Below are positions 5,036 to 60,949 of a stretch of DNA of 64,000 nt, in pieces. Position numbers and translations under genes: made by a program. Positions within the stretch are counted from its first letter, which is position 1. Each line of letters opens with the position of its first letter. Source of the stretch: Rhina ancylostomus (taxonomy: Eukaryota); NCBI GenBank assembly GCA_030265395.1, contig JARFYF010000017.1, positions 11,423,111 to 11,487,110 on the forward strand, given 5' to 3'. The notes beneath the pieces are model-generated. The model worked only from the letters and a program-made list of their open reading frames with translations, had not been told where the DNA came from and did no database searches.

Positions 5036-5593
5036 CTATCATCGAGATATTTATTATTTTGAAACAAGCACTGGGAAGATTTCCAATCTAGTGAAATATG
5101 ACAAATTTCTTTTTGCTGACATTTAATTTAGTTTCTTACTAAACTTGATACACAACTACAAGATGGTCTGCCAGAATGATATCATTCTCAGCTCCATCAG
5201 AATTATGCAGTGTGACAGTGGATATGTCACATAGAGGAAATTGTTCACTCAGTTGTAAGGTATATTTTGAGTACGTCGGAGATTAGGTTTAAACCCATAC
5301 ATCTGGACTGAAAAATATATCTGCTGGAAGCATGAATAATAAAGTAAAAAGAAAAATCCAGTTTATCAAGCCAACTGATAATTTAGTCCATGAGGGACTC
5401 CATAATTATCATTATCTTTTCCTGCCAGTTATTCTACATTCCTTTTACAGGTTTCTCCCTAACCTCCCCTCAGAGAAAATAGAACACATCTCTTTATTTC
5501 CATTACACATTAAGCATTCTGGACCAGTTATGCTACAAATTTCTACAGATGTACGATNNNNNNNNNNNNNNNNNNNNNNNNNNNNNNNNNNNN

Positions 5594-7819: not shown

Positions 7820-10800
7820 NNNNNNNNNNNNNNNNNNNNNNNNNNNNNNNNNNNNNNNNNNNNNNNNNNNNNNNNNNNNNNNNNNNNNNNNNNNNNNNNN
7901 NNNNNNNNNNNNNNNNNNNNNNNNNNNNNNNNNNNNNNNNNNNNNNNNNNNNNNNNNNNNNNNNNNNNNNNNNNNNNNNNNNNNNNNNNNNNNNNNNNNN
8001 NNNNNNNNNNNNNNNNNNNNNNNNNNNNNNNNNNNNNNNNNNNNNNNNNNNNNNNNNNNNNNNNNNNNNNNNNNNNNNNNNNNNNNNNNNNNNNNNNNNN
8101 NNNNNNNNNNNNNNNNNNNNNNNNNNNNNNNNNNNNNNNNNNNNNNNNNNNNNNNNNNNNNNNNNNNNNNNNNNNNNNNNNNNNNNNNNNNNNNNNNNNN
8201 NNNNNNNNNNNNNNNNNNNNNNNNNNNNNNNNNNNNNNNNNNNNNNNNNNNNNNNNNNNNNNNNNNNNNNNNNNNNNNNNNNNNNNNNGTTGAATGTCTT
8301 TTGCTGTTAGTTGGGAATTTGCAATTGCAGACGTTGCTATTAATGCCAGCAATATTATCAATCCACAATTGCACAGAACTGAGGATACCATTAAGAGCCA
8401 TTGAATTATGGTACAAGTAACGACAATAAACCAATACCAATGCCATTGCAGGATCTGAACTCAAGAATCTGGACTAATTGTCCAGACTCTTCCTGCTATT
8501 CCAGTGAGTTAATCCTTACACGATCATATTTCAATGGTCTTACAACATCCACGTAAACCCCATCAAATGCACCATCTTAATCAACTTTCTCGATTATCTC
8601 AAATTATTCAGTCAGTCAGACATAATTTTGCCTTTGAAACATTCATGCTGGATTTGCTTAATTAAAACACATCTTTCCAAATTACCGTTTATTTTGTCTT
8701 TGACAGTTTTCGATAAATTCCACACATAATCGGTGCTAGACTGAGAAGGCTAAAGTTGCCTGGTTTAACCGTCTCCCTTTTCCTGGAAAGTGTCATAACA
8801 TCAGAAGTCCTCTGGTCCTCCAGCATTATTCTTGAATCCAGTGAAGCGTGTGACTAATACGTCTGTTATTTCTGCCTTTGCTCATTTCAATAACCAAAGT
8901 CCAGTCCAGGTGACTTGTCACCTTTATGTACATTGGGCACAGTACAAACCTTCTCATGGGTAAAAGTCCACTGCAAAAGGATGGATATTGTATTTGGATT
9001 TGCCAGTTGGATACCTATTATTAAAGCATCAAGAGCTTGGCATTAATTTTAAATGCACATTTTCACAACAGCAGATCAGCAAAAGAGCTGATCCCTTCAG
9101 TGTGTTCACTACATCTGGATCATTTTAATGTAAAGTTGAAGTAAATGGACAGCTAGTCATGCAGTAAATGTACAGATTTCAGAGAATTTATCACAGTTTG
9201 ACAAATTTACCTTAATTATATTCATTCAGAATTTCTATATCCAACTGATAGTTTAACACTGAGAGCTGTACATCATGCATGATTTTTTACTAACATTCAT
9301 GCATGTGCAGAATAGAAATATTATTGGTTTAGTCAGAGGACAATTTAACAGAGGACACAAGCAGCAGGAAAGTTTCAGTGGCAGAAAGCAGTTAACAATA
9401 ATTTTTATTAATTGGTATTTTAATGCATTCTTCTTCAGAGAAGCATGTAATGCTGTGCACCAGCCATAACTCTCAGTCTTTACATGTTCTTATTACACTG
9501 TAAAATAAATAACAAACAAGTTTGAACACTCAACCCATACTCCTGCTAGCTAGATTTAAAACAAGGTTGTCTAACAAAATACTTTGCCATTTATTCAAGG
9601 GAGGATAAATTTTTAAAAGCCAGAGATTCAAGATAAAATGCATCACAGGACATTTTTGAATAACTGTTATTTTTTTCCTAATGGCTCCAAGGAGCCATAC
9701 ACAATAACTCTTGTTTTAAAGGTCAAGTGAAAACACCACTGACTTCTCTGGTACTTTAACACCAAGTTAGTACAGTGCTTAACCAATAGCAGGTCAGCTT
9801 GCTGTGCTGGGGCATTCAATATATCAATTTTAATTCTCCCAAAGGTGACGTGATGCGTTATCACAAAGTGCCACACATAGTTGCCCAACCGTCAACAGAT
9901 GGGTTTTACCAAAAGATGGATTTTATTGTCCTGCAGCCTAAAGACAGAAATTTGCATACACATGACCGAAGTAGAGTCTGCTACCAACCAGCTGAAATTA
10001 ATTAATCCTCAAATTGAGACTCCTATTTAAAGACTGGCAATAGAAATGCCATCTTTTAATTCCTCAGTGGCACTAAGACTGTGCATACATCTAGGTTATT
10101 TTTCATAATTATTGAGCTATGGCAAGCTGAATAGCAGAATATTTTCATAATCGTTCTAAATAATAGTTGTCTTGAAATTGCGATCAATGTCACGAGGGAT
10201 CCCATCAGCCCTCACCATGAAGCCTGTAACCTGTACGTCACCACAAAACCTCCTACATTATTTTCTACTTTGCATTTTCCAGACAAGGTTGCCCAGGAAT
10301 CATATCCACTTTCTCTTCCATGGATTCTCTGGTACCTAGCATGAAATATTCCTGGTTTTCATCCTTTGTTTTTGCTTCAGTCAGGTTTTGATACCCAGAA
10401 AAATCCATTAAGAGACTTCCAATCCTGATGAAATGATCATGTAAAGTATCTGCTGCATACAAGCCTACCATGGGGAAAACATGCTTACCAATCCAAGGAA
10501 CATCAGCAAGTGTTGGCAGCAGTCAAATCTGCACTGTGTCACATTGAAGTTTAATCACACATTGCATTTGTATAGACAATGACCAGCTCGGACCAATCAA
10601 CCTTTTAAGACACTAGCTACAAAAGTCCCCAAAAGTAGCTCCTCTCCTCCAAATTCCACTGACTTATTGCTAATGCCAAAGAATACTCACACATTGGCCT
10701 GGTCCAATTAATTAATTGATTAACAGATTGGCTGCATAGGGATAACTTAGTTTAAAAAATTAACAATCTGTATTTTATCCACTTTACCTACTCAAATCTA

Positions 10801-11340
10801 CAGGAACTACTATTTTCTATTAATTAACCACTAACAGCATATGTATTACCTGAGATCACTGTTGATTGTCAAACAGGTCAATAAATTTTTAAACAATATG
10901 GTGAAAAAGTTTTCCTTAATTTGCACACCTTTGCCTTTTCAATTACCCTTCTAGTTCCAAAGACTGTCCAACACATAATGCTACTAAGTTTAATAAGTAC
11001 ACACAAGTACACTTATATTGTAAGTTAGGTATACACCTCAAGTGTGTCTCTTTCTAAAGTCATATTTTGTCATAAATGCAAAAGTTACTGTTAATTTTAT
11101 TGTTTGAAGTTCATTTCTGCCAGTAGTGAAGGAATGAGCACCATCTAAATATTCCTAAACATACATAGTCTCACGTCACAGATATTGTTGTTGGGTTTGC
11201 ATGTCCTGCTGTTTGAGTTCTAGGCTCAACTTACAGCAGCAGGTCAAACACAACATCCAAGACAAAAATAAAATCTTCAAAATGGCCACAGTTCAATTAA
11301 ATTGCTCAATGTTAGGTCCAACCAATAGTGAGGAGCACTT

Positions 11341-11425
11341 TGACCTGAAACATTAACTCAATTTCTCTTCTGCAAATGCTATCTGATTGGTTGAATGTTT
11401 CCAGCATTTTCTGTTCTTATTTCTG
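11341..11425 (+). mobile_element. Penelope-like terminal-repeat fragment
   Basis: tgacctgaaacattaactc...tttccagcattttctgtt, same family as the 0.9, 17.2 and 60.3 kb copies. Confidence 0.65.
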
Positions 11426-17070: not shown

Positions 17071-17281
17071 TGTAGATGCTGGAATTCTGAAATATAAAAC
17101 AGAAAATGCAAGAGACCATCATTAGGTCTGGTGGCATCTATGAAATGAGATCCAGACCTAATGTTCCAGGTCAGCGACCCTTTGTCAAAACTATTGACTC
17201 TGAATGAAATGTTAACACTTTCTCTTTCTGTCACTTAGATGCTGTCTGACCTGTTGAGTGTTTCCAGCATTTTCTGTTTTT
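17071..17281. mobile_element. Penelope-like inverted (fold-back) terminal-repeat insertion
   Basis: Left arm aaaacagaaaatgc...aggtc...gcatcta is the reverse complement of right arm tagatgc...gacct...gcattttctgtttt. Confidence 0.75.
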
Positions 17282-17999
17282 AAAAAGAATTTCCTTTCTT
17301 TCTGGCAAGCTCCAAAGTTTTAAAACTTTTATTTAAAATGCCCAGTATCATACTGAGTACTGGAATCCATTAAAGTTGAAAATAGAGTTCAATGAATAAA
17401 AAGCTAATTTGATACTTTGTTTCATTGCTCTAATTTGCAAGGAGGCTTTCACTAAAAAAGAAAATAAACAAATCACCCTACACCCTTGGGAACTGTAAAA
17501 ACATGGATGTCATTCATCCTTGATTACCAAAGCAATCTTCTCCATTTCGATGTGGCTAATTTTTTCCCATGTTTTTAAATTACTGGAGAGATCACTAAAA
17601 TCACTGTAAGTGTTATGTATTGTGTGATTTTCTAAAATAAATTGTCACAGAAATTTTATATACAGTACAAAACTCTACACAGAGCCAAAATACTCATTTC
17701 AATTTCATTCAAGAAAGAACCATGTATATTGTAATGCTGTGTTACATTAAGGACATAATATGCTGGCTCTGAGTCAGACATGACTTTGGAACTAATTGCT
17801 TGCAATTAGCCATCTTGTGATATTCTTCAGATAGAGTGATTGTTACATTACCTTTCCAAATTATATCTCTGATGATGCAAATCACAGCACCAGGGTAATG
17901 TTAGGACAGAGAACCACTGGAGTGGTTCTTTGTTTTGGCATTTCTCTGAGGACTACAAGAATAGATAACGAGTTGAACTGAATTATGAAATCTAGGATA

Positions 18000-27100: not shown

Positions 27101-29538
27101 ATATCAGCAACTGGGCTACAATTACAATCCTTTAAAGAATAACTTCAGTTTTACAGAAAAGCAGACTCCATTGCAGGAATAAAAACATAGAATCAAGGGC
27201 ATGACCATATACTGTATATCTGTTGGTTCAAACTAATTTTATTAACAAAAAAAATTCAGCAATTTAAAGCTAACATTTAAATAAAACAACCTAAGGAACA
27301 TACATTTATCATTTTAACTACTTAATACAATTTAAATTATGCCACTTCCAATTAAGGAGTGTAGACTGCAGACGAACTTACATCCAACATTGTGCACTGT
27401 TTCCCAATTTCCTTAATCCTTCTTATTCACAATAAGAGTGAAGAACAAAAGTGTATAAAAACTTCAATTAAGTACAAAGTTAAAGTGCTATCCTGGACCA
27501 ATTTAGTACGATATAAAGATTAGAAACTCTCAAACGTCTCTCCTTAACTAGTTCCACCTACATCAGTGCCTTGAAGATATTCTGTCAACAGCATAAGACT
27601 TTAAGGTAAGGGTGGATTTATTGGATTTCCTCCCCGCTTTCTATCCCCACGAGGATACAGTCACCGCAATAAGGCACAAACTTAGTGGCTGAATGAAACT
27701 AAAGAGGTCATCATGGTGGTACATAGAAGCTCATAAAGAAACAACTGATCTAGCCAACCAGGAACAAGATCAATAAGCACACAGAACTGGAGAGAATGCA
27801 CTGGAAGAACGGATGCCAATTATAATGTCTATCTAGAGATGTGGGTACAGCATACAGTCAAGTGTGCTGTGACCCAGGGATACTGGGATTGATGGGAAGA
27901 AGCAGTAGGTCACCTATTAACAGGATGCCTAATGTAGCTTCTTAGTTGTGACTGGGGAAGGATCATAAGGTTTAAAACTCTGTGAGTACTGGTACACAGT
28001 AACCAATCATTATATCTGAACCATGAGCTGGAGAGTGCCTTGGGATTACAAGGCTGAAGGAGAATGTGTTTTCCAGAGATATATTGCACAGCAGGGTTTA
28101 ACAAACAACTTTAAGAACAGAAATTTTAAGGCAGAGGCTAAACCCTTTGACATCTAAAAGTACAATGCTCACTGATGTTATCAATAAGATAAGAATTTGA
28201 ACAGTTTTTTATGATGCAATTTAGTGGTAAGATCACAAGAACTTTTTATGGAAAAATAGAAAATATTTAATTGTAGTAAAAAAAATTGTTTGTGTTTGCT
28301 ACAAATTCTTGATTACCATTTTTATTGCAACAATGTCAACAAAGCAGACCACAAAGTTAGGAAGTACAACAGGAACAGATGACAGTTGATCATGCCAACA
28401 GACTCAGTCACTAACCAAACCAGCTCTCCCAATGTTACTCCTGGTGTTTATTTTGTTTATAAAATCCAAAACTTAGTTGGAAGCACACCAGTGGATCGAT
28501 AGGGTAAATTTTTTTTTACAATCAGAACTTTGGAAGCAAGGACTTTTCATGTGATTTTGCACATCATACCACACACGTAGATATAATATTGAGCATCAAT
28601 CTCCAGTTTTCATTAGACCATTTTATTTTTGATGAAAATAATTAATTTATAAAGTACCCCCTTTGGGATAACTGTTTCATATTCAAGTCCACACAGCTAG
28701 AAATTGGAACTATTGGAACTACACAGTCTGACTTCAGTGAAAATCAAATGTGTTTGAAACAAAATCAGACTCTTCATATGATTTCCATGGATCATGATTT
28801 GCATTCCTGATCTCTGTGTATCTGACACACCAAAGGGGATGTGCACAATTGCATGCATCGTATACTGCCTTGTGCTTCCATTCTTTCCCACATTCATGGG
28901 CATTGGCATCTGTGGGTAAATCACTCATACAGAAGCAGACACAGGAGTGAGCCGTACCCGAGTACTGTACAATAGCTCATGACTCATCCAAAAACACTAC
29001 TCAAGCTATCCTACTGATCTGCTACTCAACTCCAGTCCATCTACTAACCCTCACTCCTCACCATAACTGCAAGCAAAACAAAATCCCAACCACCAACCTC
29101 ACCCACAACTACAAATCCCACCCCCAGCGATCCTCATCGGCTCATCCTTGTTCTCCCTTGGCTTTGCAGCAGGTGAATGTAATGAGAAGTACAATTGGTT
29201 CCATCCTGGGGGGTGACGTTCATTGTGATAAAAGCTCAGAAATTGTGCACACATATTCCAAATGTTAAGACATCACTGGATATACATAACGATGCAACAT
29301 TAGAACTGCATCAGAGCAATATGACAACTAGCAACCACAATCCCAATTGGCAATGCAAGTATAATTTGACCCTCTGCACCAGAAACAAAATAGGAAGCAG
29401 CTTGATTTGCTAATTGTGGAACTCTCAAAACATTTCAAAATCACTTAGAAATGAAGTAAAATTGAACATTAAATAGCGGAGAGAGAAAAGCAGTATGGAT
29501 GCTGAAAAAACTGAGTGGGTTTTTCACCCAAAACTAAC

Positions 29539-29724
29539 CTGTGCGACTCAGAGGATACAATAATAACCCTCGCAGGTATTGAACGGCGCAGAACGTCTTG
29601 AAGCAGCTGCACCAGGTAGAAATGCCCCAAGTGATTGACTTGAAAAGTGGTTTCAAGGCCATCCACTGTCAATTGCCATGGAGAACCAAACACAGCGGCA
29701 TTGCAGATCAACACATGAAGGGGT
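29539..29724 (-). CDS. WWOX: WWOX internal coding exon (orthologous to human exon 7, short-chain dehydrogenase/reductase domain)
   Basis: Translates to [62 protein letters not shown], nearly identical to vertebrate WWOX. Acceptor on the minus strand is tttttgttgtgttttttccatAG|A, donor is AG|GTTAGT. Length is 186 nt, phase 2-2, as in human exon 7. Confidence 0.97.
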
Positions 29725-30386
29725 CTATGGAAAAAACACAACAAAAATCTCTCAAACTTTTAGAAGTGGACACGAAAGAACATTTTTTTGAAACAACTTG
29801 GGCTTGAAGAAAGATTGTGAATGGAAGCAGAGACAATGCAAGTAGTTATAAAAATATGGAATCAGAGCAAGTACATGGGATTGGTCCCAATGCTCATGTA
29901 GAGGATACACCCTAGCACAGCCTATTTCACTGGTGAAACTCCACACCAATTCTGTGCTACTCTCAGTGCCAGAAATGTTCTGAAATTCACAGCATTCATT
30001 CTCAAAAGTGTAAAGTTCATGAGATACAAACATTTTTTTATAAATGCTTTTTAAAAATGCCATAAACATTGAATCTTTTTTGATAACCAAACATGTAAAC
30101 TGTACATAATTTTATTTCAACCTGTACATCTCAGCAGGCCATAATTGAGGTTATCAATCAAAACGTCACTGTAGTGCATAGGGAGAACAGTAAGAAAAAA
30201 AGCATAACTAACATTTTGTTAAACTGTGTACCATACATTTTAGATGATTTCTCTTTCTTCCAAGACTGCAGTAGTCACATTTTACTGACAGAAGTTGAGC
30301 GTTATTGCAGACAATCCTTTCAGTATTTAAGTGATAAGTTTGATGAACTGAACCCCTTTGAAAGTTTAATGGTAGCTCAGCATTTG

Positions 30387-36528: not shown

Positions 36529-36579
36529 ATAAAGCCCTAGCTCCCTTAGTTATAATGACAATCTTTCTCATTCCCTGTC

Positions 36580-37490
36580 AGTCCTAATGCAGGGTCTCAA
36601 CCCAATACGTCAACTTATATCTTTTGCCTCCACAGATGTGCATGACCTGCTGTGTTCCAGCAAATACAATCTCTTTCATCTGGATCCAGGCTCTGCATGT
36701 CTCTTTATGGGATTAAAACAGTCCCTTCTTAGGACCTCTCGCAACTCTTCATCCAGTAGATTGATGACTGTATTGCTGCTGCTTCCCGTTCTTGTGCAGA
36801 ACTCAGAAGTTTCATCACCTATGTTGCTGCTCTCCACCCTGCTCTCATTTTCTCACAACTTTTCTCCAATTCTTTTCTGCCTTTCTTGACAACTCCATCT
36901 TCATCTTGGTTAGCAACCAGTGTCCATCACAAGCCCACAGACTCCCACAACTATTCTGCCTCCAGCTACTTCCACCCTACTTCCTGTAAGGAGATCCCCA
37001 GACGCACCATACCCTCTTCATCATTCTGAAGGACCCATTTTCTCTGCTTTTCCCTGGTTCACTCTTTCATTTTCACCATCCTTCAATCCCCTATTCATGT
37101 GCTTTACATGCAGTGCAACACTTGCCCTTTTATACATTCCTTTCCCACAATCGAAGAACCCAAACACTCCTTCCGGATGAAACAGTGATTCACCCACTCC
37201 TCTTCCAATTTTGTCTACTTCATTCAGTGCCCACAATATGACTCCTCTGCTCGGTAGAAAGCAAAAGCAGATTAGGTAACACCTTCTTTCACTCCTTAAG
37301 TGGCCCAGAGCTTCTAATGGCTGTCATTTTAATTTTCCATTCCATTTTGATCTCCTTGTTTTTGGCCTCGTCCAGTCATCCAATAAAAATTAATGTAAGC
37401 TCAAGGAATGTCATGTCATCTTCCAACTTGGCAAATTACACCCCTAGGACAACACTGAATTAAACATTTTTGGATAACCTACCTTTCCAA
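36580..37490 (+). mobile_element. Penelope-like element remnant: terminal repeat plus decayed GIY-YIG endonuclease region
   Basis: Terminal-repeat motif at 36580-36700. Region 37160-37480 encodes frameshifted SSNFVYFIQCPQ...ELLMAVHFN...KLKECHVIFQLGKLHP, as in PLE endonuclease C-termini. Confidence 0.65.
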
Positions 37491-43419: not shown

Positions 43420-43990
43420 AGATGACTTGTTTCCACTTTAGTACTGAGTTCTGAAGGACTGATGGGTCCAATGTGGGTCCTGCAGACTCTGTGTAAGGGA
43501 GGAGAGTGGGTGTGTGACAGGAGGGATGGATAGTTTTGGAGAGGGCACACTATATTCACCACTTGCATTGGGCTTCTGTGTGATCCCATGAATGGACTTG
43601 AAGTCCTCAATGCCAACACAAATACTTCTGTATTTTAAGATGTCAAGGGACAGAGATTCCAACTGGCAGGTGGACATATTACAACTTTCCAAGTTGGCTT
43701 TGAGAATACCCCTGCCCACCTGGTAATCTACTGACATAATGGAGCTTGAAGTAGAGTATTTGCTTCAGAAATCTGGTGTTGGACATATAAATGTGACCTG
43801 CCCGTCAGAGTCAACTGAGTTCCACCAGCAGATTGTTTGTTGCTGCATCTTCTCCAACCCTGACACTGAAGTTACCCTAGAGGATCTAGGTGCCTCTCTC
43901 TGGCATATGCACCAATATAAGGCAGGGTCTTTTCAAGGTCAGAGCAGAAGTCCTCTTTGGACACATCCATAGCTTCCAACACTTGGGTAT
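43420..43990 (-). mobile_element. RTE-clade LINE 3' fragment
   Basis: Minus strand encodes RAGHIYMSNTRFLKQILY, ILKANLESCNM and CRTHIGPIS, typical of the RTE ORF C-terminus. Confidence 0.75.
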
Positions 43991-54470: not shown

Positions 54471-55879
54471 GATGACTAGACGACAGCAAATTGCAGCATT
54501 ATCTATTCAGTTTCCCAAGATGTCACCTGGTGTACAGGTTCAAAACGCGAATGACCCCTCTCCAGGGCAACAATTCACTTCCTTCTGCAGCATCTCAGGC
54601 AGCAGACCCACCCATACCCTGCATGCAGCAAGTCCAGACGGCTCCATTGATTGGCCCTGGACAGCATTCTGAAGCTGCCCCATCATCACATGGGCCATCA
54701 AGGGCACCAAAGTGAAAGGGAGTAACCATCCAAGAGTGCGAGAGCCACCCCTGGAACATAACACTCAAACATTTAAACTGACCCAGGGGACTGTGAAACA
54801 GGAAGAACACTACAATGTGTAAGAGGTTTACAATTTTCCATTAGTCTATCATTTGATTTGACTTTATTGTTAAGTTTTCTCAATTCACTAAAATTGTTGA
54901 AATCCATTCTAATTTAGGACAAATACCTTACTTACTTGTGCAGAGACAAGTCAAATTGGTATGGGATCTGCAGCAAATGCTGCCATACCTCCTCTGGGAA
55001 AGCTGCTGATGTCACATGAACATGTTCAAGCTAAACCTTGATTTCAGTTGGATACTGAATGATGTTTTTCCCTTGAAAATTAAAACCTCACCTCAATGAC
55101 TGAATGATTGTGAAACATCTACACACAGCATAGCTGCCATGTTATTCTGGAAGAGATTGTGTACAACCTCACAACAAGGTTGATGACAAGCTACAGATTC
55201 TTATTCCCCTTTCTACTCTTGCAACACTTACCCAAGGCCACCTTTCAGGGACAGACTCCTGCAAGAGGCAGGGAAATACAATGGAGGCAGCATGGCAAGA
55301 TGAGACGGGTGAGTGTCAGTGAAAAATGATGATTTGTGCAAGAGAGATGAGTCTGTGTTGATCGTTTCCAAGTACTGTGATCCAAACGTTTCTAACATCG
55401 ACACTTCATCTGCTGCTGTGCTCCATTGTGTACCCTCAAATGGTCGATTAGTGCAACAGCAATAACATGAACCTCAACTGAAGTCTCATGAGAGATTTCT
55501 CAATGCTGAATAATTATGGACTTCATTGGCTTGAAACATGAACCCTCAGTGCATCACCCTACCCAATAAATGTCAATCTGATGAAAATGTTACGTGGATT
55601 ACTTTCAACCACAGTGACTCCGACACTGATTACTCACCATCAATGCTGAGCAGAACAACACAGAGTTCACAAGCTCAACCAATGATTAAATCTGCAGAGA
55701 GAGTCTGATTCAAGGCAAGTATATGTTCTGCAGAGATCATAGCAGTTTAGGCAACTGAATGAGCAATACGTACTTTTTCAGCAAGCCATTCATTGACGTC
55801 TTATACTCATTACAGGTAGACCTATGCGGCAGAATGGAAGGTTAATATGTAGCAAACAACAACTCCATGAAATTGAAAA

Positions 55880-56050
55880 GAAACTTGCAGATGCTGGAAA
55901 TCTAAAACTAAATCAGAAAATGCAGTAAAATCTTATCAGGTCAGTCAGCATCTGTGCAAAGAGAATCAATCAATGTTTTGGGTCTGTTCTGATGAAGGGT
56001 CACAGACCGGAAACGTTGGCTGTTCCTCTTTCCACAGATGCTGCCTGACC
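55880..56050. mobile_element. Penelope-like fold-back element with minimal hammerhead-like core
   Basis: 55939-55987 is the reverse complement of 56002-56050 (40/49 ungapped). CTGATGA..GGTC-aca-GACC..GAAAC GTT lies at 55989-56017. Confidence 0.75.
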
Positions 56051-56627
56051 AACAATGCCTCTACAGCTAATAGGTTTGTACTACAAAGAACCCCCAGACT
56101 GATGTAAGCAACAAAGACCCTTTGAGACCCTTGGCATTGTCCACAATGACTCTGTTACATGAATGTCTCTGTTGTAATTTGGTTCAACTGCTGTAATTGG
56201 AGAGCATACGGGTTTGAGTAGACATAGCAGGTAGCCCTTCTCCCCTGGAATCCACACCTGGTGGCCACTGAAAATGTTCAGCAGTTTGGACTTAGTTTGA
56301 AAACATGGCATGTTTCCATGAGGAAATTCTTTCTTGATCCACAACACAACTTGCATAGTGAGGTTGTGGATATCTTTCCTGTTCATGAAAAGCCCAAAGA
56401 ACCAAAGCCCCCTTGTTAGCTGTAGCACACTCAGAGGATTTTGGAAGATATCTGAGCAGCCTGCAGTCAGTTATGAAGTTGTCTTGTGAGGTCTCCTGAC
56501 GTCAGCTGAGCATTTCTCTAAATAGTGAGGAAAGCAACAAGTTAGCACCAGGGTATCGAATATGTGGAACTTTGTTATCCAATTGACATCTGTGTGAACA
56601 GAAGGAGCGGTTCGGGAATGGTGATAT

Positions 56628-56878
56628 TGTGGCGACTTACCTTTCACGAACCGGCTCCCAGGATCGCGAGCGTCATCGGAGGCCCCAACACAAGATGGTG
56701 CGGGGCATTCCTTCTTTGTTGGGCTAGTGGAGCCCGCGTGCGGGAAGGTCTTGTGACCTGCACGTGACGTCAGTGCGGGAACTGTGTTTATTAAAGGGGC
56801 AGCGCACTCCAGTCGTTCATTCGACTTGGACTCCAAACGAGTATCTCATGTCTTTATTCAGTGTAGCTAGTTGCTACA
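56628..56878 (+). mobile_element. Short LTR (251 bp), Gypsy-like
   Basis: TG...CA termini with imperfect inverted ends (TGTGGCGAC / GTTGCTACA), CpG-rich, CACGTGACGTCA and TATTAAA motifs; its 3' end recurs at 57980-58051. Orientation is inferred. Confidence 0.75.
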
Positions 56879-57979
56879 ACAGAAACATTTCCCTGAACCC
56901 TGGTGTTTTCATTTGACAATGAGGTTAAAATGGCACAGTCATTGCCATAGCCATTGACATTCTGTCAATAGCATAACCAATCTCTTTGCTGCTAACACCT
57001 TTCACTTTCACAAAAGAACTTCCACCAGAAGATTAGATCTGGATGAATAGTGATAACCCTGTTTCATTTTCCATTTCTAAATCGGGAACCATTATTACAA
57101 TTGCTGTAGACCCATTGTTTTCCTTGGTGAACTAAGCTGATTCATTGTAGGTATTGAATAGGGGATCTCCCTGGTCGACAAAACACAATGGCTTGGAAAT
57201 CTCATCACCAAACATAACATTTATGTGCTGTTTAATCTGAAGCAATCAGATATGTATTGCATCATTCATTCAGGGCACTCTTTTTTGTGCTTGGAGTAGT
57301 TTATTTTAAAAAATTCAAGCATGAGGACACATGCAATGTTATCCTATCCCATGCAACACATTTGGGCAGTTCTTTGTTAAATTCCATGTGGTGCTTACAT
57401 GGCCTGAAGATATGTGGAACCACTCAAGGAAAAGTAAACCTTAACAAGGAATGTGAGATCTGCTTCAGTGAAGCGTAAAGAGGTTTTAAGCTATGAAATG
57501 TGACATTTACCCTTGACCTGCGACTTAGCCAAGTTCCCGACTCACTCTGCAATGATAGAATGTACAAAGGAAATATTTTGCTGGAGATTTATCTAGATAA
57601 TATCTTCTACTATGTATGAATCTTTGGGCTTCATGCAGTGGAATTCTGCAGTGGGCTCTCACACAACACAAGCTAGCCGCCTTTATTTTGTCAGTTTATG
57701 CCTTTCCTGATGCGAAGAATTTTCCAGGCCAGCTACTGTCAACCTTACCTGACTGGCACTCAATTTGTAAAGAATAATGTTTTGATATGTTATTTATTTT
57801 TCCAATATGTTGGAGTCAGTGTGCCTTTTCTGTTTGTGTTCTGTAGGTTTAACCCTTGAATGAGACATTAAAGTAAAGCNNNNNNNNNNNNNNNNNNNNN
57901 NNNNNNNNNNNNNNNNNNNNNNNNNNNNNNNNNNNNNNNNNNNNNNNNNNNNNNNNNNNNNNNNNNNNNNNNNNNNNNN

Positions 57980-58051
57980 CCAGTCGTTCATTCGACTCTT
58001 GGACTCCAAACAAGTGTCTCGTGTCTTTATTCAGTGTAGCTAGCCGCTACA
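57980..58051 (+). mobile_element. 3' end of a second copy of the same LTR (starts at gap)
   Basis: ccagtcgttcattcgac...tctttattcagtgtagctagccgctaca, followed by ATAT. Confidence 0.8.
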
Positions 58052-58105
58052 ATATCATTAAAAGCTCAGGTTAACTAATGTGAATCATTTCTAGAAGTAT
58101 GCGAT

Positions 58106-59992: not shown

Positions 59993-60269
59993 TTAACCAA
60001 TGGAAGCAGGCAGCACAGTTGAAGAAAGATATTTTGCTTTCCATCCAAAAAACTCCATTGATATACTTAAGAATGTAGTGTAGGGCTGTTTTTATTAGTG
60101 CTGTTGAAAGTGGGTTTAGAAGAAATAATAAGCATTTTTAGTAGGAGAATTTCACTTTAATGAGCCAGTTAACTGGCAGAACAGAAGTCAATTTTTCAAC
60201 AGAGCTCTTGTACTTAAATAACAAAATTAATATCTTGATGAAAGCTTGCAAACTCAAAATATTCCCTGC

Positions 60270-60326
60270 TTCTCTTTCCCCAGACGCTACCTGACCTGCT
60301 GAGAATTTCCAGCATTTTCTGTTTTT
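60270..60326 (+). mobile_element. Penelope-like terminal-repeat fragment
   Basis: cagacgctacctgacctgctgagaatttccagcattttctgttttt. Confidence 0.7.
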
Positions 60327-60949
60327 GCCAAGCTTCCTTAAAGGGTTGTATATTGCACAAAGTAGCATCAGCAATAATGGAAACTCAATTTACGTAAGTT
60401 GCACTTAAAATCCCTTGATTATTTACACTTGCTTAAAGATTTCAGATGAACTCCAAACCAAATGTTTAGTTTGGTCTAGCGTTCAGTTCAGGTCAGGAAA
60501 TCAGCTATCAACATACAAGCGTTGTGTGCTGTACCAGAGTGCATTACATTGAAAGATTGTTGTACAATGAAGGAGTTGTATTACAGTAACATCCTGATGA
60601 ACTATCCAGCCAAGAATTGGTCTACTTAGGTCATATGACAAACTCTGCTCAAGACTATGCTCAAAATTATTAGGCAATACAAACAAAATGTACATTATTT
60701 TTTAGTCGTGCAATGACAGCCCATTTAGATCTCGTATTCAGCAACAAGCTGAAACACAGAATAAATAGCCAAGTAGAGGTATTTAAAAGTTCTAATGTAT
60801 CTTATTCTTTGGCAAAAGATAGACTATATTTAGTGCACTGGTTATTAAAAATGTCATTCAGAAGAATTATAAGCTTCTGACATTGCACATGATGAGAGTT
60901 TTTGTGTATTTTGTTTTATTTCCCATCTAAAATCCAATTTTCTGGCTCC

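Follow-up and report, generated by a model that had tools for sequence, protein, structure and literature searches.

A hammerhead motif caged by an inverted arm in a Rhina ancylostomus intron: most likely a decayed head-to-head insertion of a Penelope-like retroelement

Introduction

A 64,000-nucleotide stretch of the Rhina ancylostomus genome (contig JARFYF010000017.1; hereafter the window) holds a hammerhead-ribozyme core enclosed in a hairpin. Such an arrangement may represent a ribozyme with its own off-switch, a hairpin of use to the host gene, or what a transposable element leaves behind when it inserts. In this work, we describe the locus, its relatives in the same genome and the predicted behavior of its RNA. 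The element is very probably a head-to-head pair of high-copy Penelope-like pseudo-LTR (pLTR) copies, most likely deposited in one old insertion that has decayed neutrally since. The present damaged copy is most likely inert debris and not an RNA switch.

Materials and Methods

Searching the genome with the element yielded 1,633 candidates, 40 of which were scored, many with matches on both strands. The family consensus was built by upstream extension of copies, using 29 seed loci. For abundance estimates in the 2.2-Gb genome, the sample consisted of 140 stretches, each of 10 kb and placed at round coordinates on large contigs only (1,225,876 non-N bases, or 1.23 Mb). The 5' ends of copies were mapped for the 238 of 280 sampled copies that aligned well to references carrying their own upstream sequence; these are ends of local alignments and therefore approximate. 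Folding energies and pairing probabilities come from a monomer secondary-structure model, with no tertiary or dimer terms. Positions are those of the window, and positions with a sign are counted from C3 of the hammerhead.

Results

Structure of the element

The 49-bp fold-back hairpin with a 14-nt loop described in the initial annotation is real. Its arms (55939-55987 and 56002-56050) pair without gaps through 40 Watson-Crick and three G-U pairs, with six mismatches and a longest perfect run of 11 bp. The + strand between 55930 and 56060 is predicted to fold at -64.6 kcal/mol (z -8.24), a stability reached by none of 200 shuffled sequences, and the - strand of the hairpin region at -61.6 kcal/mol (z -7.55). 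The hairpin is thus far more stable than random sequence, yet no more than the repeat family yields, since head-to-head pairs of its copies occur at 31 per Mb.

Direct reading of the + strand also recovered the hammerhead boxes where they had been placed: CTGATGA (55989-55995), an extra A (55996), the stem II strands GGTC and GACC (55998-56001 and 56005-56008), GAAA (56010-56013), CG, and TT (56016-56017). The predicted cut falls after 56017. Both reservations attached to the motif when it was first noticed hold. One was its cleavage triplet GUU, of the NUH type, which is also the consensus triplet of family 1 and is described as permitted but non-optimal for hammerheads (PMC9217987). The other was a G-G mismatch at the end of stem II: G55997 faces G56009, and the closing G10.1-C11.1 pair, termed highly conserved in PMC4209133, is lost. 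A G at position 11.1 is found in 2 of 85 arms of the subfamily and in 4 of 217 sampled copies, and the mismatch appears to be a private lesion of the present copy, not a family trait. Stem I is reduced to two U-G pairs, a G-C pair, a U/U mismatch and a C-G pair.

The full element spans 55870-56050 and is larger than the hairpin first described, as the left arm extends to 55870. We interpret it as two head-to-head copies of the hammerhead-bearing pLTR of an EN+ Penelope-like retroelement (PLE) (Table 1). The left arm is 83% identical to positions 482-597 of the family consensus over 117 nt. Its 5' end lies at about +14 to +16, it lacks CUGAUGA, and its G12 is changed to A. The right arm begins 3 nt upstream of C3, approximately at the predicted transcription start, and runs to +61, about 25 nt short of the usual tail-less ends. 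In model coordinates, the left arm ends at 591-597 and the right arm at 529-530, while tail-less arms elsewhere end mostly at about 545-575. The whole unit is about 180 bp long, with no ORF between the arms. As for a target-site duplication, the flanks match at only 7 of 9 positions, and the right arm ends early.

Table 1. Positions of the element's parts and of the nearest host exon inside the window
Feature	Position	Strand	Basis
Left arm, read as an inverted pLTR copy truncated in hammerhead loop II, with 3' tail	55870..55987	-	family consensus, HMM matches, arm comparison
PLE tail, 30-40 nt, left arm only	55870..55905 (approximate)	-	model end positions; inner boundary inferred
Fold-back, 49 bp, built from both arms	55939..56050	either	pairing and folding
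Hammerhead motif, minimal type I, with all 11 core bases and a GUU triplet	55984..56022	+	sequence, family columns, folding
Junction, 2-nt overlap GT compatible with both arms	55986..55987		consensus alignment and sequence
Right arm, read as a pLTR copy without tail	55986..56050	+	91% identity over 65 nt to consensus 465-529
Host exon, short-chain dehydrogenase (SDR)	29537..29725 (approximate)	-	Pfam adh_short E 1.6e-4 (below cut-off), SDR matches in PDB

Identity of the family

The hammerhead had been attributed to a Penelope-like element as its minimal type I motif, and both the family consensus and longer copies bear this out. In the consensus, the translated 5' part gives the C-terminus of an endonuclease, after which come a 3' UTR, the hammerhead and the tail. 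Five loci (L067, L069, L072, L083, L095) run continuously from the endonuclease end into the present hammerhead. Related ORFs matched Pfam GIY-YIG with E values of 0.0015 and 0.022, both below the curated cut-off. A related 312-aa ORF gave seven protein matches, all carrying PF26215 and six of them the RT domain PF00078, the best being a Chiloscyllium protein at 59% identity. The RT-bearing homologues are matched by the related ORF L093, and copies of the present subfamily match only the linker/thumb and endonuclease part. No intact RT ORF contiguous with the exact subfamily was seen. Four short endonuclease fragments had no relevant Pfam match, and one of them, used as a query for homologues, returned nothing. 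A C-x(2-5)-C-x-x-C linker, full in the related loci L071, L078, L080, L085, L086 and L093 and decayed in L089 of the present family, suggests placement in the Neptune clade rather than in Poseidon. In the literature on Penelope in sharks and elasmobranchs, we did not find the present family described; Repbase, subscription papers and supplements may do so.

Four subfamilies separate among the 156 of 242 matches covering the core, family 2 being the youngest (9% diverged). Genome-wide, 1,233 perfect minimal hammerhead motifs were found, against none in the control. Most of the 100 listed belong to the youngest subfamily, with a CTGAAGA core. By their motifs, the 1,233 copies would be better candidates for activity than the present site. 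Family 4 (e.g., L150:6662, L180:5836, L194:4581) has C at the expected A9 (CUGAUGC-A) in 22 of 25 cases, and in family 3 a part of the copies (17 of 38) carries A at position 4. Such families seem to have amplified with non-canonical hammerhead cores.

Abundance and geometry of paired copies

The unit profile found 280 copies in the sample and none in reversed decoys. Adjacent copies within 60 nt of each other formed 43 pairs, 38 of them head-to-head, one tail-to-tail and four direct. The geometry of the present element, that is, one full core and a second arm beginning in the 5' half or in stem II, was seen in 14 of the 38. A genome-wide count of this architecture had been proposed; what we obtained is the count in the 1.23-Mb sample, from which we extrapolate roughly 4e5 units, 6e4 fold-backs and 2e4 fold-backs with the present geometry in the whole genome.

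Exactly one arm carries the tail in 27 of the 29 pairs classifiable with the longer model, against 14.5 expected. Arm identity has a median of 78% across 35 pairs and is 82% in the present element. At the junctions of the 38 pairs, the arms overlap by 0-10 nt in 16 and are separated by unaligned bases in 22. No clear microhomology rule was found at these junctions, the copies being too decayed.

These pairs also bear on the reading in which the hairpin is itself the mobile unit, a MITE- or SINE-like master with a fixed junction that was amplified whole. The exact 18-nt junction occurs seven times in the genome and never in the control, and the starts of the short arm cluster at +8 to +20 in 12 of the 38 pairs, as a master copy might produce. 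Nevertheless, most of the seven matches belong to other layouts, the arm running directly into the junction in only two (the present site and L256). Moreover, pair junctions span -6 to +78 and are seen in each subfamily for which pairs were sampled (1, 3 and 4), and the tail lies on the short arm in 14 pairs and on the long arm in 13. Amplification as a unit is thus already largely refuted, and we regard it as very unlikely.

Two further head-to-head pairs of the same family lie in introns of the same gene, at 17073-17288 of the window and at L109:2801-3017. Solo or nested pLTR copies occur in the window at 708-958, 11338-11425, 36574-36663, 43814-43850 and 60232-60337, all on the + strand. 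A strand bias in the host introns was considered and rejected, as upstream loci are six + and six -. At 56620-56880 lies a dispersed repeat of some 260 bp, richer in GC, with a partial second copy (57980-58057) beside an N gap. It has matches of 87-92% in 4 of the 140 sampled stretches and is possibly a solo LTR.

Origin of the inverted arm

The 5' ends of copies peak at -5 to +1, where 43 of 238 copies begin, a density of 6.1 per nt compared with about 1 per nt at -59 to -20. The 39 solo copies of family 1 that start at this peak have no upstream sequence in common, and therefore the peak ends look real. Near the cut site, no copy begins at +23 to +29 and nine begin at +30 to +36, which is the background level. 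Long copies have a CAGT at -5 to -2 and, about 30 nt upstream of it, a motif that we take to be a TATA-like box; we likewise take the CAGT to be initiator-like. Both can be seen at L202:~8920-8960, L221:~2327-2365 and L209:~5240-5280, where CAGT is the 5' strand of stem I.

The preferred reading of the element, a single head-to-head insertion, would proceed as follows. RNA of the element would begin at the initiator-like CAGT that precedes the hammerhead core by a few bases. The element's protein would nick both target strands, and reverse transcription would be primed at two internal sites, one with and one without the tail. From uncleaved RNA this would give cDNAs of about 90 and 125 nt, one reaching the 5' end of the RNA and the other stopping in loop II, and the two would then be joined head to head at the 2-nt overlap. 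The sequence of these steps, from cDNA synthesis to joining, is a proposed one. Head-to-head joining would automatically yield the ribozyme "cage", and by analogy with known elements the inverted arm may be regarded as a standard product of Penelope insertion. For the Anolis element PAc, two internal starts of reverse transcription, on both strands and with an uncleaved template, are reported in vitro (PMC11167929), and an inverted truncated pLTR with a tail at one end is a described insertion layout (PMC8557442, PMC3846280). Self-priming on an antisense template, an alternative raised in PMC3846280, is a possible origin of the pair, as is a later deletion from a longer palindrome.

The clustered short-arm starts also give a hint that stem II favors stopping or joining of the cDNA, in copies too decayed for proof. 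A stronger version, in which stem II would be the preferred stop or joining point of the shorter cDNA and Penelope insertions would systematically be born with a caged ribozyme, we hold to be doubtful.

Decay of the core and of the arms

Core decay as fast as that of the flanks had been named beforehand as an argument against a functional ribozyme, and this is what the copies display. In 76 copies of family 1, the core has 149 changes against 150.4 expected from base-matched positions (ratio 0.99). The ratio in the other three families is 1.83, 1.27 and 0.84. All 11 core bases are kept in 19 of 146 sampled copies (13%), the present copy among them, at similar frequencies in paired (4/33) and solo (15/113) copies. 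Intact cores in family 1 (8 of 60) exceed the 4.3 expected under independence. Together with the intact core of the present copy, this excess weighs against a reading as neutral debris, although a spread of ages among copies could explain it. Each of the nine differences between the two arms lies on a single arm, and none is compensatory.

Stem I is closed by a U-A pair in family 1 and by C-G in families 2-4, and therefore the motif was probably under constraint in active ancestors. After insertion, arms and core have drifted with no sign of constraint. In a related species, a 122-nt contig at single-copy depth spans 55894-56013, which suggests that the insertion is probably common to both species. 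It has 4 differences in 120 nt compared with 45 differences over 849 nt in the flanking contigs (p 0.50, a short and weak test), and the insertion does not appear detectably conserved relative to its flanks. A second related species gave no contig across the junction.

Host gene context

The exon in the window and the preceding one, about 3.7 kb beyond the window end (L109, - strand), are presumably exons 7 and 6 of WWOX. Since these exons flank the element on the - strand, it lies deep in an intron, the nearest exons being 12 and 26 kb away. Its core reads antisense to the host gene and has no promoter of its own. The pre-mRNA strand has no complete core, as the left arm there lacks CUGAUGA and has G12 changed. 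In host sense, the left arm (55880-55945, -) has a pyrimidine run, several AGs and CTGAC; we take CTGAC to be branch-point-like, and the segment to resemble a cryptic 3' splice site.

The initial annotation proposed that the host-sense transcript carries a hairpin of pre-miRNA size. The hairpin itself stands, as the strand that the host gene transcribes is the one folding at -61.6 kcal/mol; a special pre-miRNA is not supported, the Rfam miRNA matches at the hairpin scoring 19-25 bits against cut-offs of 88-92. A broader proposal would keep the Penelope origin and have the hairpin in the pre-mRNA co-opted, either as a small-RNA precursor or as an ADAR substrate affecting the gene. Incidental editing of such duplexes is plausible. 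Against co-option stand the weak miRNA scores, the lack of compensatory change between the arms, the short perfect runs, the distance to the nearest exons and the estimated number of similar hairpins in the genome, and we consider it highly improbable.

Folding and the question of cleavage

The suggestion that the inverted arm sequesters the 3' half of the ribozyme is supported by fold prediction. With the ribozyme helices forced, the RNA folds at -40.4 kcal/mol, which makes the hairpin about 24 kcal/mol more stable. In a growing transcript, hairpin formation is predicted to reach 86% once the RNA extends to 56013 and about 100% once it extends to 56017, ahead of the completion of stem I. Stems I and II each have a modeled probability below 0.001 with the left arm; without it, stem II reaches 0.02-0.07 in the monomer model and stem I stays below 0.001. 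These values speak against the further idea that the two folds act as alternatives in an off-switch. The proposed search with hammerhead models, run as an Rfam scan, gave no hammerhead match, either at gathering score in the whole window or at E<=10 in 54-58 kb. A ribozyme switch would call for comparable folds and for purifying selection on both, and the locus shows neither.

In a regulated off-switch, a hammerhead in an antisense transcript would be kept inactive by the arm until a trigger, or a start inside the loop, sets it free. The motif does keep its 11 core bases and an NUH triplet, GUU sites are described as cleavable (PMC9217987), the hairpin and ribozyme folds are mutually exclusive, and the insertion probably occurs in a related species too. 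Besides the energy gap, however, the G10.1-C11.1 pair is lost and stem I is weak, the TATA-like box is absent because the arm begins at -3, no same-strand partner core for a dimer was found within about 4 kb, and the core is not conserved among copies, caged ones being like solo ones. PLE hammerheads are moreover described as cleaving weakly even as dimers (PMC4209133; PMC6765202), or only with the element's protein (PMC11167929). Such a switch is extremely improbable; any RNA across the site is predicted to form a long hairpin, not to cleave itself, and to be removed with the intron.

Discussion

The layout of the element is that described for complex insertions of EN+ PLEs (PMC8557442), including Pen2a of Adineta vaga (PMC3846280). 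The described insertions likewise have head-to-head arms of unequal length, a short junction overlap, a tail on one arm only, and a TATA-like box and an initiator-like motif at the start of the pLTR. They include an inverted 5'-truncated pLTR and a tail of 30-40 bp at one end (PMC8557442). The present element differs in its small size, in having no ORF between the arms and in the lack of a clear target-site duplication.

Its motif agrees with the minimal hammerheads of metazoan PLEs (PMC4209133) in the CUGANGA and GAAA boxes, one extra base between 9 and 10.1, a palindromic 15.2-16.2 segment, a short stem I and no helix III. The same source describes pairs of minimal hammerheads on opposite strands 100-700 bp apart. 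In contrast, the present copy lacks the G10.1-C11.1 pair, its stem I is damaged, and its second arm has no core. As in the Poseidon element PAc of Anolis (PMC11167929), two classes of 3' end define a tail, an ATG lies near where stem II begins, and copies do not end at the ribozyme cut site; the linker of the related ORFs, pointing to Neptune, is a difference. Non-LTR retrozymes (bioRxiv 10.64898/2026.07.22.740005) are also non-coding, PLE-related and provided with type I hammerheads. These are described as tandem repeats in direct orientation that hold two or more complete hammerheads, whereas the present element is inverted with one core, and an assignment to them was rejected for want of units in direct tandem that each hold a complete hammerhead. 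We therefore regard the site as a further instance of a known insertion type, an ordinary transposon fossil.

Co-option of an old Penelope fold-back into a conditional ribozyme, carried by an antisense RNA of the presumed WWOX intron, is hardly credible. Such a ribozyme would stay silent as long as the arm is paired and would cut when a transcript begins inside the junction or when the hairpin is opened by a protein. If true, this would give a vertebrate case of a transposon's ribozyme made conditional. As one of an estimated 60,000 such fold-backs, the site itself carries little weight. The copies of this genome, however, record the chemistry of Penelope insertion at scale: pairs carry a single tail, 5' ends fall where transcription is predicted to start, and no pile-up is seen at the cut site. 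This pattern agrees with the finding in vitro that uncleaved RNA serves as template, and the record could help settle how the inverted junction of these elements is formed.
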